A stretch of 64,000 bases of DNA. Source: an uncultured Verrucomicrobiae bacterium (GTDB lineage Bacteria; Verrucomicrobiota; Verrucomicrobiia; Chthoniobacterales; SZAS-18). Both the position numbers and the translations under genes were made by a program. The notes under the pieces were generated by a model. The model was not told the origin of the DNA, did no database searches, and saw only the letters and a program-made list of their open reading frames with translations. The stretch covers positions 62,635-126,634 of the forward strand of contig CAWERT010000014.1 of the NCBI GenBank assembly GCA_963811545.1, in the 5' to 3' direction. This document shows, piece by piece, positions 4,936-39,689 of the stretch (positions within the stretch are counted from its first letter, which is position 1; each line of letters opens with the position of its first letter).

Positions 4936-5427
4936 CTATTTCGCCGCCGGGCTGGGCGCGGGCAGGGAAGCCTTTGACCACATGCCCATCGGGTGACCTG
5001 ACGGGTCCAAGAAAAGGGCAATGGCCCCTCGCCCCTCGGAAAGATTAAAAGGGAATCCAGGAACAATCTTGCCGCCCAACTGCTTAACGAGTTCGCAACT
5101 CACCACAATGTCAGCGACCTGCACATAAACCACGCCGTTGGCATCGCTGATCGTGCCATTCGCCACCCGCAGCGTCCCGATGCTCTTGCCATCCGCTACG
5201 ATTTCGACCGCCTTGTTCGTGGCCTTCAATTCCTCGAAGGTCCAGCCAAACAGCTTGCCGTAGAAATTCTTCGCCTCGTTCAGGTTGGTGGTGGTGATGT
5301 CGAACCACGCCACGCGTCCCACTCCCACGTCCGCGGGCGGCGTCCGGCCGAAGACCGCGGAGCAAGTGCCCGCCAAGAGAAGCATCGAGAACAAAAGCGG
5401 AACCAAAAATGAGCGTCGGTTTTTCAT
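4936..5427 (-). CDS. secreted VOC (glyoxalase/bleomycin-resistance fold) family protein
   Basis: MKNRRSFLVPLLFSMLLLAGTCSA signal peptide, then VAWFDITTTNLNEAKNFYGKLFGWTF...GRGAIALFLDPSGHPMGMW, typical of VOC domains. Confidence 0.75.
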   Translation of the reverse strand: MKNRRSFLVPLLFSMLLLAGTCSAVFGRTPPADVGVGRVAWFDITTTNLNEAKNFYGKLFGWTFEELKATNKAVEIVADGKSIGTLRVANGTISDANGVVYVQVADIVVSCELVKQLGGKIVPGFPFNLSEGRGAIALFLDPSGHPMGMWSKASLPAPSPAAK

Positions 5428-5579
5428 ATGGAAATGCCGTTCAATGGCCGAAGGAATGCTTGAGAACTCAAGCCCCAAAATTGAGCGATCGACTTGGCGC
5501 AAAGTAAAGTCTCAATGCGGCTGTGGTGTCACTCTGCCGGGGTGCCCCAGGCGAAGCGGGGAAGCCCGGGGGACCGTTC

Positions 5580-6580
5580 TTAACTGATCTGCACCACGAC
5601 CTTCCCTTTGGCCCGGCCCGTTTCGAGATACGCCAGCGCTTCCCTGGCTTGATCGAACGGAAACACCCGGTCGATGACCGGACGGATGATCCCCGCTTTG
5701 AGAAGCTCGCCAATTTCTGCGAGTTGGCTGTTGTCTGGATGCGCGAAGAGAAATGAATACGCGACGTCGTGTTTCTTGGCGAGGCGACGCACCTTGCGGC
5801 TCAAGAACCACAGCACAAACAGCACGACCGAGTTCATGCCCTGCGCCCGACCGAACGCGGGGTCCGGCGGCCCGACGAGCGAGATGACGCTGCTCCCAGG
5901 TTTCAGAATCTGGAAGGATTTCTCCAGCGATTCGCCCGGAACAGTGCCCAGCACGGCATCGTAGTCCCGCAGCACGTCTTCAAATTTCTGCTTTTGGTAG
6001 TCAATCACCACATCGGCTCCCAGGCCTCGCACCAATTCCGCGTTCCCGGCGCTGGTCGTGGTCGCCACGGTGGCGCCGAGGTGTTTCGCGAGCTGGATCG
6101 CAAACGTGCCAATGCCTCCGGCGCCGGCGGGGATGAACACCTTCTGGCCGCGCTTGAGCTGCGTCCGCTCCTTCAGCGCCTGCCACGACGTCAGCCCGAC
6201 CATCGGAATGGAGGCAGCCTGCACGAAGTCCAGATTCGCCGGTTTGAGTGCGGCCGCGTTTTCGGGCACGACCGCAAACTCAGCGAGAGCGCCCGTGCGC
6301 AGCCCGAAGATGTTGGCGAAGACGCATCGCCCGGCTTGAAACGCGTCACGTCACGGCCGACCTCAAGCACCACACCGGCCAAATCGCTGCCTTGGGTGAC
6401 GGGTAATTGAAGCCGGAGGACGGGCTTCATTTCCCCCGCCCGAATTTTGTTGTCCACCGGGTTCAAGCCAGCGGCGTGAACCTGAACGAGAATTTCGTCC
6501 GGCTCCGGCACCGGCCTGGGAATGTCAGAGAACGTGACGTGATCCGGTCCGCCATAGCGATTGAGAACAAGGGCTTTCAT
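5580..6580 (-). CDS. zinc-type alcohol dehydrogenase / NADPH:quinone oxidoreductase family, one 1-nt deletion near 6325
   Basis: MKALVLNRYGGPDHVTFSDIPRPVPEPDEILVQVHAAGLNPVDNKIRAG, then after the shift VFANIFGLRTGALAEF...GQKVFIPAGAGGIGTFAIQLAKHLGA (Rossmann GxGxxG). The break is at gatgcg-tcttc, where gcg gtc is expected. Confidence 0.85.
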
Positions 6581-6810
6581 ATCGTCGTCAGGTGCCGCGT
6601 CAGCCATTCCGAGACTTGCATTCCTCATTGTAGCGTAATTTCCCCATCTGGCGCAGACGACGCTCCGGGTTACGAAATCATGCGCGACCGGCGAGGCGGA
6701 AAGTAAAGTCTCAGAGCGAACGAGACGCCACGCTCCACGCCTAGTCAGATCCAGCAAAGATATCGCAACGGCACCCTCAGCAGGATAGGCTGAATTCATG
6801 TCTCTCCCGA

Positions 6811-7148
6811 TTGCCTGTCGCGCTCGCGGTCGGACTCGCTTTTGCGTTCTGTGCGCGGAAGGCAGCCGCAGCGCGCCCGCATATTACCGTGAAAGCCGGT
6901 CACTATGACGGGAGGCTTTGGACGGCTGTCACGAATGACGGAAACGTGACGATCACCCGCATGAAATGGGTCGTGAGATTTGTGAAGGGTCCAGCGGGTG
7001 AGCAAAGAGGAACTGATCAAGTATGTCTTACGGCCCGGTCAGACGGTTAACTTCACCAGCAATTTGGAGGTTCCCCCGGCAGGTCAGCACTGGCGAGCCG
7101 ATCACATCATCCTTTCCGTTTACGCGGCCGGAAAGTGGATCGAGCCCT
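6811..7148 (+). CDS. hypothetical small exported protein, probable frameshift near 6995
   Basis: The hydrophobic N-terminus LPVALAVGLAFAFCA...ITVKAGHYDGRLWTAVTNDGNVTITRMKWVVRFVKGPAG continues plausibly in the +1 frame as VSKEELIKYVLRPGQTVNFTSNLEVPPAGQHWRADHIILSVYAAGKWIEP*. Confidence 0.35.
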
Positions 7149-7164
7149 AAGTCGATTCGGATCG

Positions 7165-7496
7165 CTCACACGGAGCTGCACGAAGGCACGGAGAGGACTC
7201 AAAATCTGAGCGAAGCAAGCGCAGAGATCGCAAAGACGGCGATAGAAACGCGGATGACACGGAAGGACTGGCGGAACTAGGAAAGGCTACTCGAATGAAA
7301 CCACGAATTTTTTCGGACAGATCAGACGTTTCCTCCTCCGATTCCATTCGCGTCGATTCGTGTCAATTCGTCGGTTTCACGGCCTTCCGTTGGCGTTCTT
7401 GGATTTCTTGGTGGTGAACTCTGTTCTGAAAAATCTGCGGAAATCTGCGTTAATCTGCGGTTAAGGATCTTCTGCGTCTCCGCACCGCTGCGCGAG
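7165..7496. repeat. composite intergenic repeat cluster
   Basis: Modules cacggagctgcacgaaggcacggag, attcgcgtcgattcgtgtcaattcgtcgg and aatctgcggaaatctgcgttaatctgcggtt (about 7432-7462). Confidence 0.75.
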
Positions 7497-8063
7497 TCAC
7501 CCTCCGTTCTCTGCTCGGTACCAAACGTATACCAGTCCGTTGGCGAATTTGCGCTCACCGAGAAGCTCGAGATTCACGCGGACCTCGCGTGGAAAATACG
7601 GATTGCCGCCGCCCGCGATGACCGGCGCGATGAGCAGGTGAAATTCGTCGACCAGGCCGGCTCGAATGGCATGCGCGGCGAGCGTCGCTCCGCCCACCGC
7701 CAGGTCGCGGGTCGCTCCGGCCTTGAGCTCCCGGACAACCTCCGCGTCGAATTTCCGTTCGAGCCGCGTTTTGGGTGCAGTGACCGTCGGCAGCGTCGTC
7801 GAGTACACGATTTTTTCGGCCGCCTGCCAGATCGGCACGTACGCCAGCATGCCGGCGGTCGGATTCGGAATCACCTCCGGCGTCTCCCAAACGGCCATCG
7901 TCTCGTACACCTTGCGCCCAAAGAGATAGGTGCCGACGCGCCCTTCGCGTTCGTTGATGAAGGCGAAGACTTCCTCATCGAGCTCCGCCCATTCGAAGTT
8001 GCCGGTTTCATCCGCCACATACCCATCGAGCGACGTAAACGCGGAGTAGATCAGTTTGGCCAT
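7497..8063 (-). CDS. dihydrofolate reductase-family protein (RibD C-terminal domain-like)
   Basis: MAKLIYSAFTSLDGYVADETGNFEW...YLFGRKVYETM...LAVGGATLAAHAIRAGLVDEFHLLIAPVIAGGG, characteristic of the RibD_C/YwjB-like family. Intact. Confidence 0.8.
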   Translation of the reverse strand: MAKLIYSAFTSLDGYVADETGNFEWAELDEEVFAFINEREGRVGTYLFGRKVYETMAVWETPEVIPNPTAGMLAYVPIWQAAEKIVYSTTLPTVTAPKTRLERKFDAEVVRELKAGATRDLAVGGATLAAHAIRAGLVDEFHLLIAPVIAGGGNPYFPREVRVNLELLGERKFANGLVYVWYRAENGG

Positions 8064-8162
8064 CGTGCGTCCTCCTTTCTCCTTGCTGGAGTTGGCGGTT
8101 TCCCGGAGACGCAAATTCCCAGAGTTTACCAAATTTGGAACTCAGAATTCAATCTTTGGGGT

Positions 8163-8497
8163 CTGCGTGAGAGTACTTGGATTTCGCACGCAGAGCCGCA
8201 AAGGCGGGGCGAGACAGCACGGTCAGACCGCGAAGACGGACAACGACCGCGATGACGCGAGGACGCACAGATCACGGAGGACCTGGAGAGACGAACAACA
8301 AGATCTCTGCAGCCTCTGCCGTGAGGAATTCAATGTTATCGCGTGTCCTGCGGACAATTCGTATTCTGTGGCGAATCCGTCGAAAATCTGCGAAAATCTG
8401 CGTCAATCTGCGGTTGAAAAACTCAGTGCTCTCAGCGGGCTCCGTGTGAAACCTGTCCTTACCATTCGTGTCGGCTTCGTGTTGATTCGTGGTTCAC
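8163..8497. repeat. composite intergenic repeat cluster
   Basis: Contains acgcagagccgcaaaggcgg, aatctgcgaaaatctgcgtcaatctgcggtt (about 8384-8415), cagtgctctcagcgggctccgtgtg and attcgtgtcggcttcgtgttgattcgtggttc. Overlaps the 3' tail of the next ORF. Confidence 0.75.
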
Positions 8498-8996
8498 TTC
8501 TCGGCGGCTTTTTCTTCGCAGCGGGTTTGGCTTTGGCTTTCCCTTTGCCCATCGCGTCGCGCATCGCCTGATAGCCGGCGGCGTATTCCTTGACCGGGAG
8601 TTTGGCGATGGTGTTCTCAATCACATCGAGCGCGAGGTCCGACAACTTCTGGAAACGGAGGCAGCCCTGGCCCATGTCGAGTTTCTTGCCGCTCTTCTTG
8701 TATTGCGCGTCGAACCATTCGCGCAGCGCCGGCTGTCCGTAAAAGCAAAGCATGTGCAGCGAGATGCACGATTTCTGCGACACCAGGCTGACGAGCGGCA
8801 GCGCCACCTTGGGATTGCCGCCATAGCCGGCCGGATACGTCGACAGCGGAACGAACCAGCTGATCATGCCCCACTGGATTCCTTCCTCGTATCCCTTCGG
8901 CAGGGCCCGGTTGATGGCCTTGCGCACTTCGCTCAATGCCTCACGGCGATCCGCGGGGAGCGCGGCCAGGTATTCGGTCACGGTGGCTGCTGGCAT
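8403..8996 (-). CDS. DUF1801 (YdhG-like) domain protein with a Lys-rich, repeat-derived tail
   Basis: MPAATVTEYLAALPADRREALSEVRKAINRALPKGYEEGIQWGMISWFVP...CLRFQKLSDLALDVIENTIAKLPVKEY matches DUF1801-type proteins. The last roughly 30 codons run through the repeat cluster. Confidence 0.7.
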   Translation of the reverse strand: MPAATVTEYLAALPADRREALSEVRKAINRALPKGYEEGIQWGMISWFVPLSTYPAGYGGNPKVALPLVSLVSQKSCISLHMLCFYGQPALREWFDAQYKKSGKKLDMGQGCLRFQKLSDLALDVIENTIAKLPVKEYAAGYQAMRDAMGKGKAKAKPAAKKKPPRSEPRINTKPTRMVRTGFTRSPLRALSFSTAD

Positions 8997-9166
8997 GGGG
9001 CAGATTTACCAAAATGGATTTGATGCAGCGACTGTATTCTCAACAGCGCGCGTCCTTTCGACAGAAGAACTGTACCTTTGTATTTTTCCAACGAGCCCGG
9101 GCAGATTCGTCGGCATCCCCATTTGTCGTATTCCCTTGCCATCATGAAATCGGTATTTGTGGGCGC

Positions 9167-10349
9167 ATGCGTTCCCCCCTCCTCACCTCATTTCTCTTCG
9201 CGTCGGCCCGCTGGACTGCCCTCCTCGCGGCCGGCTGGCTCGCGCCGGCATCCGTTTTCGCCCAAGGCTCGCTCACGCCGCCGGGAGCACCCGTGCCGAC
9301 CATGCGGTCGCTCGACCAGATCGAGTCTCGCACCCCGATTAACGCCGCGACCACGCCGGGCAACGCCGGCGCGCTTTTCATCATCTCGACGGCCGGCTCG
9401 TACTACCTGACCGGGAACGTGACCGGCGTGGCCAGCAAGGTCGGCATCGCGGTCACGGTGAGCGATGTGACGATCGACCTGGGAGGCTTCACGATGACCG
9501 GCGTGGCGCTGGCCACCTCCGCCATCTCCTTCACCAACGTCGACCGCATTCACATCCACAACGGCCGGGTGCGAAACTGGCCGGCGGCCGGCATCAATGG
9601 AAACGGCGGCGATGGCGCGCGGCTGGACAACGTCGTTTGCGAGGCGAACGGAGCGCAGGGAGCGCTGCTGGGTCAGAACGCGGTCGTGACCAACTCTTTC
9701 TTCCGCAACAACACCGGCGCGAGCGGCAGCGGGTTGCAGGTCGACAACGGATCGGTCGTGACGCACTGCACGTCCCGGGGCAATGCGTTGCACGGCTTCG
9801 CCATCGGCAACGACTGCGAGGTCTCGGATTGCACAGCCCTGAGCAACACGGGCAACGGCTTCAATGTTCTCTCCGCCTCCCGCCTGCAGGGCTGCACCGC
9901 GACCAGTAATACGGGCGCCGGCTTCAGCGGCCTGAACCTGGCCCCCATCCTCGTCCACTGCATGGCCCGCACGAACACCGGTTCGGGGTTCGAGGTCGGC
10001 AGCGATGCCATCATCACCCAATGCACCTCCCATCAGAATGCCCACGGCTTCACCTGCGGCTCCGGAACGATGATCACCGGCTGTGTCAGTTCGACCAATA
10101 CCCCGGCAGGCAGGGGCCACTTCCGGGGCCGGCTTTCGCGTGACCGGCGCCACGGCGCGGCTCGAGGGCAACACGTCGCGCGGAAACAACCGCGGTTACG
10201 AAACCACCGTCACCAGCGTGCTGCTCATTCGCAATCTGGCGGACACCAACGGAACGAATTACTCCCTGACCGGCACGGGCTCCGGCGCCCTCGTCACCGC
10301 GGCCAACGTGGCCACCAACACCAACCCGCACGCCAATTTCGATTTCTGA
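9167..10349 (+). CDS. secreted right-handed parallel beta-helix repeat protein, one frameshift near 10095
   Basis: Signal peptide MRSPLLTSFLFASARWTALLAAGWLAPASVFAQG, then SLTPPGAPVPTMRSLDQIESRTPI, then repeated about 22-aa units (C/V)T(A/S)xxNTGxGF. The C-terminal piece GAGFRVTGATARLEGNTSRGNNRGYE is in the next frame. Confidence 0.7.
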
Positions 10350-10432
10350 CGCGGCGGATATCACACGAAGATGCCGATGCCCTTGGATTTCTGGTGGCAA
10401 ATGCCTGAAAGCTCGGTCAAACAAGAAATCGT

Positions 10433-10765
10433 TCACCACAAAGAACACAAAGAAATCAAAGACCGGTCTATTTGGATGCGATTCTGTGTTGTCTCCCCTG
10501 CCTCCCTGGACTTCCGGCTTTTCGGTAATCTTGGTGGTCGATCCCCTTCCGAAGAATCTGCGGAAATCTGCGTTAATCTGCGGTTAACAAATCAAGCCGG
10601 TTTCCTGTCTTTCAATTTGCTTCGTTGCGCTCCCGTCGATTCCCCGCTTCCCTCGCGGCCTGACCGGCTATCTCATCACTCCTTTGTGATTCGTTTCGTG
10701 TCGGCCACCGCGCCTCGTTGATTCCGGCTTTACTTTCGGCCTCGCCGGTCGCTCCATTTGGGCCG
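10433..10765. repeat. composite intergenic repeat cluster ending in a conserved upstream motif
   Basis: Contains caccacaaagaacacaaagaaatcaaag, aatctgcggaaatctgcgttaatctgcggtt (about 10554-10586), and tcggccaccgcgcc..ccggctttactttcggcctcgccggtcgctccatttggg (10697-10763). Confidence 0.75.
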
Positions 10766-10865
10766 TTAGGCGTTGCTCGCCCGGCCGATCAACGTCACCA
10801 GGTTCTTCGCACGCTGATGCCTGGCTGTAGCTGTTGATCTTGAGCGACACCAAATTTTCGCGACC

Positions 10866-11496
10866 ATGAAATCGGCCATTGTTGCAGGAACCATCTTGTT
10901 GATCGGAGGCCTTTTCGTGGGGATTGGCTTTCAGGAGTCTCAGATCAAAAAGGAGCAAGCACTGGCCCTGCGAGCTCGCGAGGCCGGCGAGCCGGGTCCA
11001 CTTCCCCTCGATTTATGGCCAGCGGAGCCTTATCGAACCGCCAAGAAGAAAATAAGCGCCGCGAACAACGGCGCTGGCCTTGGCGGAAACTACGGAGCCC
11101 GGCGAAGTGAGAATCGAGAGTGCGCGATTTGCGGAAGTCCCCTGCCATTTCAGCCTCGACTTTCTCGATGGCCAGCTGATGCGCATTCACATCGCGTTTT
11201 TGAGGAAAGATCCTGCCGATGTGGGGCGCGTCCACGAACTCCTCAAGGCCCGCTACGGTGAGCCAACGCGCGACACCACGTCGAATAGCTCCTCTTTCGC
11301 AACGTGGCGCATCGCCTCGCCCCTGCCGTTTAGTGTGGTCAGCAGCGAGTCACCGTCTGATTTTTCAATCACCTACAGCGACGCAGGAGCCTTGGGACAA
11401 ACGGCCAGCGCCCAGACGGCCGAGGCGATCCTGCGCGCGAGTGAAGAAAAGGAGAAGCGGGCCAAAGAAGGCGGAGAAGAAGTAACCGCAGATTAA
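10866..11496 (+). CDS. hypothetical membrane-anchored protein, one frameshift near 11075
   Basis: N-terminal TM MKSAIVAGTILLIGGLFVGIGF. The second frame continues ...EVRIESARFAEVPCHFSLDFLDGQLMRIHIAFLRKDPADVGRVHELLKARYGEPTRD. No recognisable family. Confidence 0.45.
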
Positions 11497-11868
11497 CGCA
11501 GATCGACGCTGATTGGGAAGGCACGGCAGAGGAACCATGCCAGAGTGTGTGGGAGCAAGATCTTGAATGATAGAGCACAGACGACAATGACCGAGACTTG
11601 CTCTGACCTCCCCCGCCTTCGCGGCGGCTCCGTGTTCTTGCTTCACTCGGTCCGCTCGATCCACCGCGGCCTCATCGCGGCCTGACTGGCTGAACCGCCC
11701 TGCCACCGCAGCGCTCGGCCGTGGTTATTCTTCTGAAATCTGCGGGAAATCTGCGTTAATCTGCGGTTAAAAAATCAAGCTGGCTTTCCGGTCTTTCAAC
11801 TTCGTGTCGGCCACCGCGCCCTTTGCTTCCGGCTTTACTTTCCGCCTCGCCGGTCGCTCCATTTGGGT
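11484..11868. repeat. composite palindromic element plus a conserved upstream motif
   Basis: Arms aaccgcagattaacgcagat (about 11484) and aatctgcgttaatctgcggtt (about 11736-11769), then tcggccaccgcgcc..ccggctttactttccgcctcgccggtcgctccatttggg (11804-11868), paralogous to 10697-10763. Confidence 0.8.
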
Positions 11869-11881
11869 CGTCGCCGCACCT

Positions 11882-14297
11882 ATGAAGGACTTGCTGCCGG
11901 ATATTCGCTACGCGCTGCGGGCGCATCCGGAGGTCGCCGACGTTACGCTGGTCACGTTGCTCACGCTGATGCTCGGGATTGGCGCAAACGTGGTCGTCTT
12001 GGAGTGGTGAACGCACTCGTCTTGCAACCGCTGCGACGTGCGCGACCCGCAGAATCTTTATCAGCTTCGTCTAGCCTCTCGGATCAAACATGGTAAAGCC
12101 GTGACGATTGGTTTCCTGCCTTTCAGGACTATCAGCGGCGGAACACGACGTTCAGTGAAATGGCCGCTGTTTACTCGCTGGGCCCAGGCGAGGATGACCC
12201 CGGGTAACACCTCCAGAAATCTTTATGGCTATGCGGTCACCGGCAATTACTTCGAATTGCTGGGGGTGAGCCTCAGCTCGGCCTGTTCATCCAGTCTGCC
12301 GACGACCATGGTCTCAACTCGGAGCGCCCTACATCGTCTTGACTGACAAGCTTTGGCGAAGCGCCTTTAACGCCGTCCGGCGGTGGTGGGAACGGTCGTC
12401 CGGCTCAACGGGGATCCGGTTTACAGTCATCGGTGTTGCCCCGCCGAGTTTCGGCACGGAGAAATTTACCCGCTTCAGTCCGGACTACTATATTCCGATC
12501 GGGAACCACCTCGATCGGGATCGCCTGGAGGACCGCACGCCCCCGCCGCTGATGGTGTTTGGCCGACTGACATGCGTGACCCCCGGCAAGCGGCGAAAAT
12601 ATCAGTGCCATCTCGGCGCAATTGGCCGAGGGAATATCCAGCGACCGAGACCGGAATCGCCTGGCGACTGATTCGGCCGGGACTCTCCGGGGATCACGGT
12701 GACGTCATTCGCGGATTTCTTTATAGCGTGAGCGGACTGGGGTTGCTGGTGTTGGTGGCGGCTTGCGCCAATCTGGCCAGTCTCTTCGCGGCGCGCGCGG
12801 CGGATCGCAGCCGTGAGCTCGCCGTCCGCGTGGCGCTGGGGGCGAGCCAATGGCGACTCGTCCGGCAAGTCCTGACCGAAGTGGTGGTCTTGGCGGCGGT
12901 GGGTGGCGGCGCAGGCCTGGCGGGCGCAGGGCTGTTGCTGTTCGCGCTGCACCGATGGCAATCGCCCTACGGCCAAATGCCGATCAGTGTCGATGCCCCC
13001 GTGTATCTGGTGGCTCTGGCCTTGAGCGTGGTGAGCGCGCTGCTCCTGGCGATGATTCCCGCGCGGCAGGTGCGGCAGACCAATCCACAGCAGGCGATGA
13101 AAAGCGGAGCGGCGGATGCGACGCTGCGGCGCCGGTGGGGACCGCGGGATTTGTTGCTGGGCGCACAGATCGCCATCTGCATGCTCCTGGTCACGGCTTC
13201 GCTCATCGCAGTGCGAGCGATGGTGCGGGTGATGCACACTCCGCTCGGATTCCAGCCACAAGACGTGACGCTGGCCGACGTCGACTTCAGTTTGCTGGAA
13301 GAGAAGAACGTGCCGCTCGAAACAAAGAAAGCGATGCTGGAAGCGCTGCGGAACATCCCCGGCGTCACTGCGGTCGCGGCGATCAACAGGCCGCCGCTCA
13401 CCGGATCCCTGCGCGGTTATCCGGTTTTCGCGCCCGGGACGGCGGAACTCAACGTGAACAATTCCGTGCTGTCGTCTTACAATTACACCGTTTCGCCGGG
13501 CTACTTTGAGATCGCCCCCGTCCGGCTCATGGAGGGGCGCGATGTCTCGTGGCATGACACGACCGACACGCCGCTTGTCGCAATCGTGAACCAGACGTTC
13601 GCGCGCAACATGTGGGGCGAAGCATCGCCGATAGGGAAAACATTTCATTTTCCAGGACCAATTGAGGGAAGTCGTGGGTGTGGTGGAGGATGGAAAATAT
13701 GAAGAAGTGACCGAAGCGCCGCAGCCGGCGGTGTTTCTGCCGTGGTCACAAAACGAGCAGATCTCGCCGACTTTCGTGGTGCGGTCGCATCGGGCGCAGA
13801 ACGAACTGACGCCGGAAATCCAACGAACGACTGCTCGCGCTCGAACCCGAGGCGTTCGTCACGGTGCGTAGTTGGCGGACGCCATTGCGTGGGTGGTATT
13901 TCCGGCGCGGGCCGCGCACCGTCGCCTTGGGCATCATGAGCGGACTGGCCGCGATGCTGGCCGTCACCGGCATCTTCGGGATGGCGGCCTACAACGTGAG
14001 TCGCCGGATGAAGGAGTTCGGTCTCCGCGTGGCCTTGGGCGCGCAGGCGCGACACGTCCTGCGCGCGGCGGTGGGCCGCCCCATCGTTTTGCTGGCCGTC
14101 GGATCCTTGCTGGGGCTGCTGACCACCCTCTTCGCCGGCGGGCTCCTTCGCAGATTGTCGATCAGGCCGACCCGCGCGATCCCGTCGTCGTACTCGGTGC
14201 CGTGCTGACCATGATCCTTTTAGGCATCGCGGCGTCTGCCATTCCGGCGATGCGCGCGCTCGCGGTCGACCCATCCAAACTCATGCGGGAAGAGTAA
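11882..14297 (+). pseudogene. ADOP-type duplicated FtsX/MacB-like ABC transporter permease, many frameshifts
   Basis: N-terminus MKDLLPDIRYALRAHPEVADVTLVTLLTLMLGIGANVVV is typical of the family. The long in-frame block 12383-13702 has FtsX-like TM segments (LVLVAACANLASLFAARAADRSRELAVRVALGAS). The C-terminal FtsX repeat (FGLRVALGAQARHVLRAAVG...AIPAMRALAVDPSKLMREE*) lies in other frames. Confidence 0.8.
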
Positions 14298-14445
14298 CAC
14301 TCGTGTCAGATATTTTGTCCTGACCCCCTTTTCCACGTAGCGCGCCCACATCAAGTCTTCTTCTTGATGATAGGTCCTTGTCCTTTCACCGGTGTCTCAG
14401 TTGGCTTTGCCGAAAGTTGAGCTCCGATGATGTCAACCATCTTAG

Positions 14446-15135
14446 CTACCGGTTTGAAATCGGACCATTGGATTCCTCATGTATCGGCCACTTGCCATCC
14501 GAGGTGAGGTAAATCGATGCAGGCACTTGGTGTGCCCGATGACCGCTTATGAAATAGCTCAACACGGCTCCGCAGACCACACAGGTCATAGCGCGATGTC
14601 CTAGCAGCATTCCCGCCTCCGGGGGCTTGATGAAGGCGCCGACCCACCTGCCACCCATCGCTGCCGAAAGCGTGAAGACCGACGTCGTACATGCATAGCG
14701 CCAATCTTCACCCGGGTCAGAAGCCAGAAGCATTTTTCTTAGCCGTTCCTCATGCGGTCCTAAGTCCAAGGGATAAAAGGGAGCAGTGCTAACGCCGAAT
14801 CGCCAAAGCATCGACATCTGGAAGAGCTTCACCTTCGCGTAGTCGACTGAAAGCACGAGTGTCGTGCCGGTCTTACAGGAAATTTTTGGAGTTCCGTCGT
14901 CGTTGAAAATCTGGTTGGAGACGTAGCCCTCCCACTCTGCAAATCGCTGCTCGCATTCTTTGCAGAGCAATTTCTCGGAGAACGTCGAAAAGAATTTCTT
15001 CGCTGCGACATCCTCGTTCGTCGAGTGCGCGTCAAACGTTCCGTCGCCGTCGAGCAGACGCTTGAACAAGAAATCAGGAATAATGTGCGAATTGCACAAA
15101 GTTCTGTCCTCCCGGCAAAGTTTGCAGATTGCCAT
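14446..15135 (-). CDS. hypothetical Cys/His-rich protein with an HNH/treble-clef-like N-terminal motif
   Basis: MAICKLCREDRTLCNSHIIPDFLFK ... LLCKECEQRFAEWEG: two CxxC pairs flanking an SHIIP motif. Intact 229-aa ORF in a lower-GC region. Confidence 0.6.
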   Translation of the reverse strand: MAICKLCREDRTLCNSHIIPDFLFKRLLDGDGTFDAHSTNEDVAAKKFFSTFSEKLLCKECEQRFAEWEGYVSNQIFNDDGTPKISCKTGTTLVLSVDYAKVKLFQMSMLWRFGVSTAPFYPLDLGPHEERLRKMLLASDPGEDWRYACTTSVFTLSAAMGGRWVGAFIKPPEAGMLLGHRAMTCVVCGAVLSYFISGHRAHQVPASIYLTSDGKWPIHEESNGPISNR

Positions 15136-15478
15136 GGTCAGACGTTCCTTGTGAACCTTAGAATTCCACCCCTTTCACACTCCAAGAGCCGAACCGGAAG
15201 CGGCCACCAAGCTCCAATACGGAATATGGCCTTTTAGGTCGGCGCGTGCTGCGGTTAATGCATAGCACGTCTCAATTTGACAGGCGTTGGGAACTGGCAG
15301 AGTCGTACGGCGGGAGAGACTAGGTCGCCCTACAACCAGCCGCACGGTTTGCCGTCCTTCTGGGAGTTGGTCGATCAGGGTCACTTTCGTCGCAGTTAAG
15401 GTCGCAAACCCACCTAACGCAGAAAGAAAAAACTATGAACGCTGGAGCTCCGCGGTCGGCAGCGCTGACACGCTGCCC

Positions 15479-17230
15479 ATGTCAGTCGCGAATATGACGT
15501 TTCTTGTCAATCGTCTTGGTGAAGACTGCTCGCCTCTTCAATACGTCCGCGAGCTGACGCAGAATGCTATCGAAGCAGTCGCGCATCGCGGCGACGAGGC
15601 CGGCCAGGTTATCTGGGACGTGGACTGGTCGTACTTTGACCTCGAGGGAGTCAAAAGCTCTGTTGTATTGACAAGGGCGTCGGGATGACAGGTCCCGAGA
15701 TGGTCAAGTACATCAACAACTGTCGTCGTCGATTCACGAGCAGTCGGCGATTGGCAACTTTGGCGTCGGCGCGCAAGATTGCGGCAGCGCCGCGGAATCC
15801 GCCGGACTAAATCTGCTACTGAGCTGGAAGGACGGCGTCGGCCACATGATTCACTTGTGGTTCGATCCCGTGGAGAGGGTCTACGGTCTGAAGCGGTGGC
15901 CGAAGAACAACGGGGAGTTCTGGGCCGTAGTTTCGAACGATCTCAAACCCAAGGAGATTAAGGAGCAACGGGACGGTGGTGGTTCTGCTCGGCCGTTCGG
16001 ATGATGATGTGACGATGGAGCCGTCCGAGGGGACGCCGATGCGCTCTCGTTGGATCTTTGGTACTTAAATACCCGTTACTTTCGCTTTCCTGAGGGCGTC
16101 ACGGTCCGCGCGGGAGGGGTGGGAGCTACCGCGGCGAAATCCCAATTTCCTTCGGGTCGTTGACGGGCAAGGCGTGTGGCTGGATGCAAGAGCTGGGACG
16201 CAAAGGGTTCAATTGAACTTCCGGTGGGCGTGCGCATTGGTGGATTATCGGCGGGGTCGACTAGGACTCGGGTCACGTCGCACGGGGTGGACACGTCGCC
16301 GCCTTGTTTCAAAACGAGCTTTACGAGCTCAGTTGGGCCGCGCAGGCATTGCGCAGCTTCAGGCGTTTGGCGTGATCTTCGGCACCGATCGCGTCGCCGT
16401 ATATCTTGAGCCGAGTTTCGCCACTGAGTGCTCTGTGACCTCGAATACCGCGCGGACGCAACTGTTGATCGCCGGCGCGCCGTTGGATTGGGCGCGTGGG
16501 CCGCGGAATTTAGCGATCAGATGCCTGACGAGCTCGTTCGCCTTCAAGAACAGATTGGGGCCGGGCTGGTGAGAAGGACCACAAGAAGGCGATCCTGGAA
16601 CGTCTCAAGCAGATCGAGGATTTGCTTCGCTTCTCGCGCTTTCGTCCGGCGCGAGATGGAGTACCGCGGTGAACGTAGACTCGTCTGCAGGCGGTGAGTC
16701 GGCCGTCCACGGTGCTCAGCGGGCAGGGACTCGCGAGCCCGGCAAAAAGGGTGGCCAAGCGGGCGATATCTTTGCGCTATTTGCTGAGGCCGGCGGGTCA
16801 GTGCCGATTCGGTGGACAGCTTTTAGGAGCCGAAGACTCAGTGGGTTAGCAGGGAGGACGGGACTCGTTCGGCTGGAGACCTTGATGATCGTGCGGCGAG
16901 GTTCTTTCTGCAACAGAATTTGCTGCTGATAAACGCGGACTTTCGGGTGTTTACGGACATGGTCGATCGGTGGGTCCGACTCTATGATCACGTTCCTGGT
17001 GCGCTCGGAAGTGTTAGGGAGGTAGTTCATGAGTGGTTCGAGCAGCACTCATTGAAACGGTCATGAGCGCGCAGGGGCTGAAGAAGACAGGCAAGTGGAG
17101 TCTCCAGGAGCTTGAGGCACTTTGGAGCGAGTCGGCGCTTACCGCGGCCGTTCTTCCTCGCTGGCACATTGATCAAAGCATTAAGCGAAATCTCGGCCAC
17201 CGGCTCGGGAGCCTTAAGACCGCAGCATGA
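15479..17230 (+). pseudogene. GHKL (Bergerat-fold, HATPase_c_3/MORC-Hsp90-like) ATPase, about 580 aa when at least 8 frameshifts are repaired
   Basis: N-box LQYVRELTQNAIEA, G1 box CIDKGVGMTGPEM, G2 box GNFGVGAKIAAA. Protein-like continuation pieces (HLWFDPVERVYGLKRWPKNNGEFWAVV, YLNTRYFRFPEGVTVRA, FFLQQNLLLINADFRVFTDMVDRWV, LIETVMSAQGLKKTGKWSLQELEALW) are spread over three frames. An alternative start is ATG 15435, which needs one more shift. Confidence 0.65.
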
Positions 17231-17287
17231 AACTCCTGTAGGAATGAAAAACCGGGAAACGATTGTGCCACCAACTAACCCGCGGCC

Positions 17288-17795
17288 ATGTTGACCGAGT
17301 GGGCGCTATGCGCCAAACCGTTTGTGGACGTGATTGCGCCTGTTCTGACGCTTCTCGTGGCTGTCGGGGTGGGCTGGGTCGGTTATCAGCAATGGTTGAT
17401 AGCGCAGGCGCAGCGTTCGTTGTCCGAGGAAAAGATTCGTCTCTACTGTTGATCATCGCTATGAGGTCTTTAAGGCGTCACGGCAATTCATTCTTCTCAC
17501 GGCGCAGGTCGGCAGATTTGATGATGCAAATTGGGCTGACTTTCAGCTTAAGACTGCCGACGCCGTATTCCTTTTTGACGAAGACGTTCTTACTTATCTC
17601 AAGACCCTTCGCGATCGCTCGATTGAGGCATCTGCCACGCCGTCAGTCTATAGAATTGTTGCCGCCGCATCTGAGCAGGAGCATGTGCGTCTTGTGAACC
17701 TCCAGCGAGACTACCTTGCATGGCTAAATGAAAAGACGACGGCGATATCGACTGTGTTCGCGCCGTATCTGAGTTTCCGAAAGTTTAAGCCATGA
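17288..17795 (+). CDS. hypothetical single-pass membrane protein (about 168 aa), one 1-nt insertion near 17450
   Basis: MLTEWALCAKPFVDVIAPVLTLLVAVGVGWVGYQQWLIAQAQ (TM helix). The +1 frame continues VDHRYEVFKASRQFILLTAQVGRFDDANWADFQLKTADAVFLFDEDVLTYLKTLRDRSIE...YLSFRKFKP*. That C-terminal frame has no start codon of its own. Confidence 0.5.
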
Positions 17796-17803
17796 CAGAC
17801 TTT

Positions 17804-20133
<2,330 letters not shown>

Positions 20134-20184
20134 GGGCGTACTGTCGGATTCGACAGGACCGCTCCCACCGGCTGCACTCTCTGC

Positions 20185-20275
20185 TACGGACTTCCTGCGG
20201 CGGCATTACCCGCATCAGGTTCAAAGGGTTCCTTTCGAGAAGGTCTCAGCCGGTGTTTGGGCGCCCCTGTCTTGG
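20185..20275 (-). promoter_or_regulatory. TPP (THI-box) riboswitch in the thiC leader
   Basis: The reverse strand reads caggggcgcccaaacaccggctgagaccttctcgaaaggaaccctttgaacctgatgcgggtaatgccgccgcaggaag. This carries the conserved GGGG..CUGAGA..ACCCUUUGAACCUGAUCxGGxUAAUxCC..GGGAAG pattern, about 50 nt upstream of the thiC ATG. Confidence 0.9.
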
Positions 20276-20324
20276 TTTGCCTGACGCTAAGCAACGCGCG
20301 CGTCCAAGTCAATGCACGGCAGGG

Positions 20325-20572: not shown

Positions 20573-21759
20573 CTAGTCCAGCCGCGGCATCGGCATGGTG
20601 CGCATGCTGGTCGGCACCCATTCGCTGGCGGGGAAGGTGGAACTCGGCTCCTCGATGTCGGCCAGGTTTCCGGGAATCCGGTCGGATTTGTAGTCGGCCA
20701 CCAGCTTCGGCGGACGCCGGAAGAGCGCCAGGCCGCGGTAGGCCTCCACGCCGTCGGCAATCGATTCGCACAGGCTGTTGCGCCAAAGCGGATCGTTGAT
20801 CTGCTTGCCATCCTGCAGATTGCTGAGGAAGCCGCCTTCCACCAGGACCGAGGCCGACTTGGTCAGCTTGAGCACGGCGAAAGCGCGCGCGCTTCACGCC
20901 GCGATCGAACTCGCCCATGTTGCCGATGAGCGCGTGCTGGATCGAGGTGGCCAGCGCGAGGCTGGCGTTCTCGGAGTCGTGGCCGGGGAGCTGCGCGAGC
21001 AGGTCGGCGTAGGTGTATTCGTCGTGCGTGGCCGGGCGCGCCGCGCGGGGCCAGGGCGAAGACCTCGAAGCCGGTGGCGTCGCCCGAGTTGTCGCCCGAG
21101 GCGTTGAAATGGATGCAGACAAAGATCGAATCGGGCACCGAGTTGGCGCGGCGCGCGCGCTCCTCCAGCGGCACGAACTCGTCCGTGCTGCGCACCATGA
21201 CGGTCTTGAAGCCGCGCTTCTCGAGCATGGTCTTGAGCTCCTTCGAGACGAGAAGGTTGTAGTCCTTTTCCATCCCGAACGGGCTGGCCGCGCCCTTGTC
21301 GTGACCGCCGTGGCCGGCGTCGATCACCACCGTCCTGAAGGGCTTCACCGCGGGCACCATGTTCGGGCGCAGGGCGGGGTCGAGCGTCTTGGCCAGGTCG
21401 AAGCGCGAGACGAGCAGCTTGCCGTCCTGCTCGCGCACGGGGAAGGAGAGCCACTGCTTGACGCCGTTGATGAGGACGATGCGGCCGTCGGTGCCGGTCT
21501 CCAGGGTGGAGCGGCCGTTGGTCAGGAGGATGCGGCGGTCGCCGGGCTTGAGCTCGCCCTGCAGCTTGTAGAAGCGCGCGATGTTTTCCAGGGTGAGGTA
21601 GTCGCGGCCCTCGTACTTGACGATCTTCCAGTCGGGATTGACCTCGGCGGGCTTCTTGTCGGCGGCGGCCCGGGCGCCCCTTTTCTCCGCGGCGTGGGCG
21701 CAGATCGTCCCGCCGAGCGCCAGGAAGGCGAGGAGAACGGTCAGACGACGGAGATTCAT
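20573..21759 (-). pseudogene. N-acetylmuramoyl-L-alanine amidase (Amidase_3 family), 2 frameshifts
   Basis: Signal peptide MNLRRLTVLLAFLALGGTICAHA, then TVVIDAGHGGHDKGA, SIFVCIHFNAS, and in other frames DRGVKRARFAVLKLTKSASVLVEGGFLSN. Confidence 0.85.
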
Positions 21760-21847
21760 GAAGCGCGGCGATCGCAAAACCTTGAGACGCCGATGGCGGG
21801 AAAACGTTCAGCGGCAATCGTGCCGTTTGCTAGTCGCACCCGCGTCA

Positions 21848-21921
21848 TGGCTGCCTCGCAAGGATTCGAACCTTGACAAGAAGCTCCAGAGGCTTCCGTG
21901 CTACCGTTACACCACAAGGCA
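21848..21921 (-). tRNA. tRNA-Gln (anticodon CTG)
   Basis: The reverse complement tgccttgtggtgtaacggtagcacggaagcctctggagcttcttgtcaaggttcgaatccttgcgaggcagcca folds as a cloverleaf, with acceptor TGCCTTG/CGAGGCA, anticodon loop CTCTGGA, a TTCGAAT T-loop and an encoded CCA. Confidence 0.9.
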
Positions 21922-39614: not shown

Positions 39615-39689
39615 TGGAGCGGGTGACGAGACTCGAACTCGCGACGTCTTCCTTGGCAAGGAAGTGCTCTACCACTGAGCTACACCCGC
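39615..39689 (-). tRNA. tRNA-Gly (anticodon GCC)
   Basis: The reverse complement gcgggtgtagctcagtggtagagcacttccttgccaaggaagacgtcgcgagttcgagtctcgtcacccgctcca folds as a canonical cloverleaf, with anticodon loop TTGCCAA and an encoded CCA. Confidence 0.93.

Follow-up and report, generated by a model that had tools for sequence, protein, structure and literature searches.

A compositionally foreign three-gene islet beside thiC in an uncultured Verrucomicrobiae bacterium, probably mixed cargo at a recurrent insertion site

Between a permease gene and thiC of an uncultured Verrucomicrobiae bacterium (Verrucomicrobiota; Verrucomicrobiia; Chthoniobacterales; SZAS-18) lies an islet of three genes, here called A, B and C (positions 14298–17800), which an earlier note, made from the letters alone, had proposed as an undescribed defence-like or mobile module. 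The window analysed is a stretch of 64,000 nucleotides (GenBank assembly GCA_963811545.1, contig CAWERT010000014.1, positions 62,635 to 126,634 of the forward strand), and all coordinates refer to it. Open reading frames (ORFs), homology and a hydrophobic segment confirmed the three genes at the places given in the note. Gene A (14446–15135, minus strand) is an intact ORF of 229 amino acids, which alignments and a structural model assign to a large unnamed family. Gene B (15479–17230, plus strand), recognized by homology and by Foldseek, encodes a predicted ATPase with GHKL and transducer domains, a disordered linker and a conserved helical domain at the C-terminus. Gene C (17288–17795, plus strand) follows after 58 nt; as had been described, it is an ORF of about 168 amino acids with an N-terminal hydrophobic helix, contains one frameshift near 17450, and has one homologue.

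On the left, the islet is bordered by the permease gene (11804–14297, plus strand; G+C 0.629; putatively of the ADOP type according to the earlier note), which consists of ORF pieces in several frames with a stop at 14297; 148 nt (14298–14445) separate this stop from the stop of gene A, where a repeat of the thiC 3' end was sought without success. Genes A and B are transcribed divergently from an intergenic region of 343 nt (15136–15478), which contains one weak sigma-70-like match (15135–15164, plus strand), a number not above that expected from shuffled sequences; promoter and terminator scans yielded nothing beyond chance. On the right, the islet adjoins a repeat of the final ~68 codons of thiC which has no promoter (17803–18006, minus strand; G+C 0.544; about 85% nucleotide identity), followed by a spacer of 108 nt (18007–18114) between both thiC 3' ends and by thiC itself (18115–20130, minus strand), with 91% protein identity to a metagenomic relative and 14 frameshifts. 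A thiamine pyrophosphate (TPP) riboswitch upstream of thiC (20175–20278, minus strand) matched the full model RF00059 with 67.9 bits, compared with a gathering score of 54.3 (E 4e-12).

The DNA of the islet is compositionally foreign. Its content of guanine plus cytosine (G+C) is 0.560 (whole window, 0.636) and represents the minimum among all segments of 3.5 kb (mean 0.637, standard deviation (sd) 0.028). The tetranucleotide L1 distance between the islet and the rest is 0.358, against 0.181 ± 0.034 (maximum 0.269) for 107 other segments, i.e., it lies more than 5 sd above them. Values for G+C at the third codon position (GC3) are 0.64 for gene A, about 0.60–0.66 for gene B and 0.53 for gene C, versus 0.90 for thiC and 0.70 for the permease gene. 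The change of composition which had been noticed between the permease stop and the thiC 3' region is therefore real by both measures. The accompanying figures of 48–53% versus 73% G+C were correct in direction and too large in size; they were extremes from single lines of 60 nt, and the true contrast is about 8 percentage points.

Scans for ORFs, tRNA genes and repeats agreed with the earlier observation that no integrase, transposase, tRNA or flanking direct repeats are present. No ORF for an integrase or transposase was found in the islet and no tRNA gene in or adjoining it, the nearest being tRNA-Gln at 21848; direct repeats bracketing the islet were not found either, and the left junction gave just one match of 15 nt with 87% identity, which is probably due to chance. 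The features of an integrase-mediated island, namely a recombinase, attachment-site (att) repeats at both ends and often a tRNA gene, are thus lacking here, and a repeat is present at the thiC side alone.

Gene B can be aligned end to end with GHKL proteins of about 600 amino acids after 14 single-base frameshift corrections (near 15653, 15718, 15774, 15802, 15966, 16060, 16107, 16186, 16334, 16492, 16563, 16661, 16795 and 17046); in addition it contains two to three in-frame stops, with TAG codons at 16262 and 16824. Frameshifts were mapped by protein-guided alignment; a six-state codon-position hidden Markov model (HMM), which missed most known events and confounded adjacent genes, was dropped. 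When thiC was aligned in the same frameshift-aware manner to the ThiC protein of a metagenomic locus (L146), its 14 frameshifts turned out to include 12 between 19434 and 20090, i.e., within 660 nt. Of the 172 invariant residues of its family, the frame-corrected gene B retains 166; two of the other six are situated at a frameshift junction. A first reading of gene B as a pseudogene was withdrawn on account of these two results. Because thiC, with its high protein identity and an intact riboswitch upstream, carries equally many indels, the frameshifts of gene B are, judging from the sequence, more probably assembly errors than signs of decay; where indels are so dense and patchy in conserved genes, pseudogene calls anywhere in the window are unsafe. 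It may be added that the permease gene (11804–14297, plus strand) and an amidase-like gene (20863–21817, minus strand) each read in at least two frames.

The same evidence bears on the idea that a larger integrative element has lost its integrase and is decaying, the islet being what is left of it, in which case gene B would be a true pseudogene, gene C no gene and gene A alone perhaps functional. The 14 frameshifts and the in-frame stops of gene B would fit, and so would the nearly orphan status of gene C and its want of codon-position bias; yet the equally frameshifted thiC indicates that indels are unreliable in this assembly, and the retention of nearly all invariant residues by gene B does not suggest decay. 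Further evidence comes from the thiC border and is considered there.

With the stitched protein of gene B more than 1800 homologues of about 600 amino acids were obtained, all unnamed and none with a precomputed Pfam domain. An alignment of 26 family members with 65–88% identity contained 172 invariant columns, the mean column identity being 72%. Residues E40, N44, D81, G83, G85, G112, G114 and T181 of the GHKL motifs were invariant in all 26 and are all present in the frame-corrected window copy, which thereby shows motifs I–IV of the Bergerat fold (ExxxN; DxGxG; GxxGxG; Thr). Scores with the Pfam profiles HATPase_c and HATPase_c_3 remained below the threshold (the window copy scored 18.8 bits and protein P0003 15.2, with a cut-off of 25), and weak matches were found in 20 of the 26 members (best E 1e-4); PADLOC and PHROGs contained no match. 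The AlphaFold model of gene B is of moderate quality (predicted local distance difference test (pLDDT) 65.6). Foldseek aligned it over 390–430 columns with the N-terminal part of MutL (LN40), Hsp90, GyrB/ParE, MORC2/3, SMCHD1 and TopoVI-B (E 4e-9 to 1e-7). The best structural likenesses, i.e., MutL LN40, Hsp90, GyrB, ParE, SMCHD1 and MORC2/3, share nevertheless only 10–16% sequence identity with gene B, and neither the C-terminal dimerisation/endonuclease domain of MutL, nor a Toprim domain, nor the middle and C-terminal domains of Hsp90 are present. The earlier assignment of gene B to the GHKL/Bergerat-fold ATPases is upheld by the invariant motifs together with the structural matches, and according to the model the protein would comprise a GHKL domain and an S5-type transducer domain directly after it, both of which are contained in the matched structures of MutL LN40, MORC2/3, SMCHD1 and GyrB 43K. 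A disordered linker follows, and then a conserved helical domain of about 140 amino acids, whose profile retrieved nothing credible from the PDB sequences. A protein of this kind might dimerise on ATP binding and clamp or loop DNA.

Among GTDB species representatives the family of gene B was found in Proteobacteria, Acidobacteriota, Planctomycetota, Verrucomicrobiota, Actinomycetota, Cyanobacteria, Chloroflexota and others, with identities of 43–73%. It was absent from 50,697 phage records, and 72,556 plasmids contained one full-length match.

Gene A is represented by 48 homologues in a word-indexed search; an exhaustive search yielded 3485 cluster representatives at E ≤ 1e-3, of which 1543 remained at the stricter limit of E ≤ 1e-10. 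Family alignments showed the conserved residues C4, C7, S16-H17-I-I-P20, C58, C61, E62, W111-R112 and G126-P-H128-E-E130. The AlphaFold model is good by its scores (pLDDT 88.9, predicted template modelling score (pTM) 0.88), and no match to it was found among PDB folds (best E 0.25), nor did a search of PDB sequences give one. BFVD, which contains predicted viral structures, provided a single match, an uncharacterised myovirus protein (template modelling score 0.71). Three PHROGs of unknown function were matched, one of them (phrog_19960) at E 2e-24; no Pfam, NCBIfam or PADLOC family was found, and the matches in plasmids and phages are all annotated as hypothetical.

The earlier note had called gene A nuclease-fold-like, a label which is unproven. 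The second CxxC pair, about 50 residues from the first, lies where a helix begins, and the invariant His where a beta-strand ends; the two pairs and this His presumably resemble the pattern of HNH proteins and endonuclease VII. The Pfam profile HNH_5 matched 9 of 44 family members weakly and below threshold (best E 0.005), and none of 149 members at E ≤ 0.01. Compared with the beta-beta-alpha-metal nucleases of the HNH/T4 endonuclease VII type, the cysteine/histidine pattern of gene A is compatible; the usual Asn/His metal ligands, however, are not evident, and some 150 further residues belong to a fold without a match. A second comparison is suggested by the motif H-I-I-P-x-F, which resembles the N-terminus of DUF4238 proteins. 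Like the single-gene proteins without a known mechanism in defence islands, such as DUF4238/Rst_DUF4238, gene A is small, stands alone and occurs in phages and defence islands; unlike them, it has no PADLOC match, and profile matches to DUF4238 (PF14022) are stray and below threshold (one of 44 family members at E 9e-4, one of 149 at E 7e-3). The gene A of the window itself had no such match and is not counted as a member of PF14022.

Seven neighbourhoods of gene A homologues could be inspected. One contains Shedu, DUF3800, a Type I HsdR and Wadjet; another RNase T, a McrA-type HNH protein, Mrr_N and IS21. In locus L166 (5024–6729) the homologue starts 4 nt before the end of a gene with a TIR/SEFIR domain, a second TIR gene (TIR_2) and a regulator of the ImmA/IrrE type are close by, and this arrangement may be an operon which couples the A family to TIR signalling. 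A helicase and HATPase_c_3 pair occurs with transposases in L167. Two distant members of the family, in L085 and L169 (around 6001–6840), share a context in which a MoxR ATPase, a methyltransferase or a SIR2_2 protein of 1190 amino acids, and DUF58/VWA precede the A-family gene in this order, while it is followed by genes for an epimerase, a histone-deacetylase-like protein and a caspase-like Peptidase_C14. Hypothetical genes only were present in the seventh neighbourhood. Gene A, with a predicted zinc site of four cysteines and the invariant Ser-His, would act alone in inter-genome conflict, presumably as an enzyme on nucleic acids which depends on metal and is of the HNH/endonuclease VII type.

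For gene C one homologue was retrieved among 5.8 billion proteins (P0169, 28% identity, E 1.4e-7), and no Pfam, PADLOC, NCBIfam or PHROG family. Its GC3 value of 0.53 is close to its overall G+C of 0.52, i.e., there is little codon-position bias. Possibly it encodes a small, rapidly evolving membrane protein, possibly it is no gene at all; in the former case it would be an orphan merely travelling with A and B.

If the three genes worked together, their homologues should be neighbours elsewhere, and the absence of such neighbours had been named beforehand as the first of three outcomes that would each refute the cassette. Absence is what was found. Searches with tblastn for A and C within 10 kb on either side of 80 gene B loci produced matches at chance level, none of them convincing; the only match below E 0.01, that of gene C downstream of the ATPase in L040 (E 0.004), was rejected, being inside an unrelated ORF of 271 amino acids without a membrane helix. 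A profile HMM of the gene A family, built from 149 members, scored nothing at E ≤ 1 in the same 80 loci, while giving 3e-73 with gene A of the window. Conversely, no ATPase of the gene B family was present in any of the seven A-family neighbourhoods; the HATPase_c_3 gene near the A homologue in L167 was considered as a candidate and dismissed, since it belongs to a different family (hhalign probability 0.2). Neither A nor B nor C was found in 80 metagenomic thiC loci.

These results make it very improbable that A, B and C constitute one anti-phage or abortive-infection cassette, as the earlier note had suggested; in such a cassette the ATPase would be the sensor or motor and a nuclease the effector, next to a membrane protein. 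The notion is attractive in that the genes are compact and uniform in composition, B and C are on the same strand at a short distance, and the families of A and B have each been seen near defence genes. It is opposed by the fact that no pair co-occurs in 80 ATPase loci, seven A-family loci or 80 thiC loci, by the single homologue of gene C, and by the genes downstream of B in other genomes, which are mutually unrelated. The trio had been said to match no named system, and PADLOC bears this out: PADLOC-DB v2 has no component model for B or C and matched gene A just with Cas8 at E 0.045, and 149 A-family and 26 B-family members produced one stray match each. Of the suspected defence character, the frequent vicinity of A and B families to defence and restriction-modification genes remains, and the three-gene system does not. 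Homologues which are never neighbours elsewhere point therefore to a mixed cargo.

A smaller unit could be imagined, i.e., a two-gene restriction-like module of an HNH-type nuclease and a paraMORC-type ATPase in divergent orientation. Its models would be the operons of paraMORC1 genes, which can adjoin HNH endonuclease genes (PMC2292703). Genes A and B are adjacent, with their 343 nt of shared upstream region, and gene A possesses the CxxC...H...CxxC pattern and the weak HNH_5 matches; but the A-family profile found nothing around 80 B-family genes, the GHKL gene which accompanies an A homologue in L167 belongs to another family, there is no methyltransferase in the islet, and the B gene of the window clusters with solitary copies. 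A module of A and B is thus quite improbable.

The ORFs within 10 kb on either side of 80 species-representative loci of the gene B family were clustered. The only recurrent partners were a C5 cytosine methyltransferase (Dcm) on the same strand and a divergent Vsr gene, directly upstream of gene B in 11 of 80 loci. In a distance tree, 9 of these 11 gene B copies formed one clade. The cassette of Dcm, Vsr and ATPase is compact (L025–L039, e.g., L025:2686–6272, and also L056 and L071), occurs in Planctomycetota, Acidobacteriota and Verrucomicrobiota, and contains no further conserved nuclease; the ATPase may therefore, like MutL, cooperate with Vsr. Elsewhere gene B has as neighbours TrwC relaxases, serine recombinases, toxin-antitoxin genes, AAA_21/AAA_15, SMODS, HamA, DUF3800 and Schlafen-like genes; ordinary housekeeping genes are frequent as well. 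The window copy groups in the distance tree with solitary copies from Rhodospirillaceae, Rhizomicrobium and Pseudorhodoferax; dcm and vsr are absent from the 64-kb window and also from the vicinity of the nearest relatives of gene B.

Iyer, Abhiman & Aravind (2008, PMC2292703) connected a radiation of MORC and paraMORC ATPases with restriction-modification systems that include Dcm and Vsr. Gene B shares with these proteins the GHKL and S5-type transducer domains, a family-specific C-terminal extension and a patchy, mobile distribution, and part of its family is likewise found near Dcm methylases and Vsr endonucleases; it differs in having no conserved partner of the superfamily II (SF-II) helicase or restriction-endonuclease type, most members being solitary. 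Judged from the descriptions in that paper, the gene B family fits the radiation of GHKL plus S5 proteins linked to restriction-modification. One clade is coupled with a Dcm methylase and with Vsr as nickase, recalling the stimulation of Vsr by MutL, and the copy in the window belongs to a solitary clade of proteobacterial type.

It could be argued that gene B is no conflict gene at all, but resembles a housekeeping gene for repair, whose product would be dedicated to assisting Vsr, in the manner of MutL, when deaminated 5-methylcytosine is corrected by very-short-patch repair. Besides the Dcm and Vsr genes directly upstream in 11 genomes, work cited in PMC2292703 indicates that MutL stimulates Vsr, and a mean column identity of 72% is unusually high for a defence gene. 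Against this, 69 of 80 loci have no Dcm and Vsr within 10 kb, and the link is largely that of one clade; the distribution across phyla is patchy, with relaxases, recombinases and defence genes nearby, and the window has neither dcm nor vsr. This role for gene B would appear to be improbable.

The right border was described previously as a decayed copy of the thiC 3' end. The copy exists; it adjoins the islet 108 nt beyond the true thiC stop, and the duplication amounts to about 200 bp. Simple decay, in contrast, does not account for its differences from the thiC 3' end: of 34 substitutions, 25 are at codon position 3 and 18 are changes from GC to AT, with 4 gap columns. Since the substitutions are mostly in third positions, the copies must have diverged while both encoded ThiC, and 85% identity with a pattern biased to synonymous changes implies different source alleles. 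The second 3' end appears to derive, as far as its sequence tells, from a different functional thiC allele of lower G+C, similar in this respect to the islet which it touches. The islet would have come from a donor of lower G+C content, where it was already situated behind thiC.

Direct extra copies of the thiC 3' end downstream of thiC were also detected in 11 of the 80 metagenomic thiC loci (L091:937–5841, L146:8928–13730, L088, L090, L105, L113, L114, L123, L125, L126 and L129), with spacers ranging from 60 nt to 5 kb and with variable starts. In L091, 4.3 kb are inserted between two thiC 3' portions, the second of which is 258 codons long; the insert has an ORF of 719 amino acids with the motif NPPFG of N6-adenine methyltransferases and an ORF of 364 amino acids, without an integrase, and from the translations we infer that it is probably a restriction-modification unit. 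In L146 a gene resembling REP-type (RAYT-like) transposases and a sigma/anti-sigma pair precede two degenerate thiC 3' copies, again without an integrase. Taken together, the thiC 3' end looks like a general capture site. Nothing relevant on thiC as an integration site of islands was found in the literature.

Insertion of restriction-modification genes with long target duplication, giving direct copies of tens to hundreds of bp and needing no integrase, was reported by Furuta, Abe & Kobayashi (2010, PMC2853133), whose criteria were an insert of less than 20 kb with R and M genes, a bracketing direct duplication of more than 30 bp and no other mobility gene. The window resembles such insertions by a duplication of about 200 bp next to the 3' end of a gene and by the lack of a mobility gene; it differs in that the repeats are adjacent, with a spacer of 108 nt, and do not bracket the islet, and in that the islet lacks an R-M pair. 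In L091 the repeats do bracket an insert of suitable size, with putative R and M genes as read from the translations. For the islet, the route of arrival may have been a recombination which duplicated the target, rather than an integrase.

For the islet as the remnant of an integrative element, the thiC 3' copies could be regarded as scars of attachment sites, and the degenerate copies in L146 would support this. The two loci whose ORFs were read, L091 and L146, have no integrase between their thiC 3' copies, however, and the start points of the duplicated segment differ among loci, unlike a fixed att core. Together with the state of thiC and the conservation of gene B, this renders a decaying remnant rather unlikely.

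The interval between permease and thiC is best regarded, with a probability of roughly 0.6, as a short variable region, acquired horizontally at a place just downstream of thiC where insertions recur, with three mutually unrelated genes which were not inherited as a unit. The islet is, in this sense, a new instance of a familiar thing, namely a small variable islet of accessory genes at a hotspot. Several points weigh against this. A close relative with both flanks was not found, and none of the 80 thiC loci has the permease next to thiC. The two thiC 3' copies stand side by side, 108 nt apart, instead of flanking the islet, and the left border is without a repeat; the mechanism of insertion is therefore inferred only. 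The association of A and B families with defence genes is qualitative, from a handful of loci, without statistical enrichment. A nuclease role of gene A depends on a motif pattern and on the faint HNH_5 signal in 9 of 44 members, without any likeness in the PDB. Gene B has in-frame stops and thiC has none, so that the two TAG codons are the sole hint, at the level of sequence, of real damage to gene B. Finally, A and B are divergent neighbours and may have entered a local, lineage-specific partnership, comparable to the pairs of paraMORC1 and HNH genes (PMC2292703).

The main result is thus a negative one: a tempting trio of an ATPase, a nuclease-like protein and a membrane protein is probably a chance assembly of cargo and no new defence system. 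Its parts should be of interest nevertheless. Family A comprises thousands of proteins without a name and without a solved relative, and recurs among defence genes and in phages; like family B, it merits a study of its own at the level of the family. Family B consists of strongly conserved, horizontally mobile ATPases similar to MutL and MORC, which current Pfam and PADLOC models miss, and its clade tied to Dcm and Vsr offers a testable link between cytosine methylation, nicking by Vsr and a MutL-like motor. Beyond the usual model organisms, the recurring thiC 3' ends could illustrate how DNA is inserted in nature with duplication of the target and without an integrase. It is a tentative and somewhat unlikely suggestion that at least one of the families A and B is a new stand-alone immune gene, and that the thiC 3' end is an integrase-free capture site in soil bacteria.

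Two further features of the window may be recorded. Genes for tRNA-Gln(CTG) and tRNA-Gly(GCC) are located at 21848–21921 and 39615–39689, respectively, both on the minus strand and neither adjoining the islet. A second stretch of lower G+C, with values of 0.58–0.61 per kb, extends from 5000 to 12000, to the left of the permease gene.

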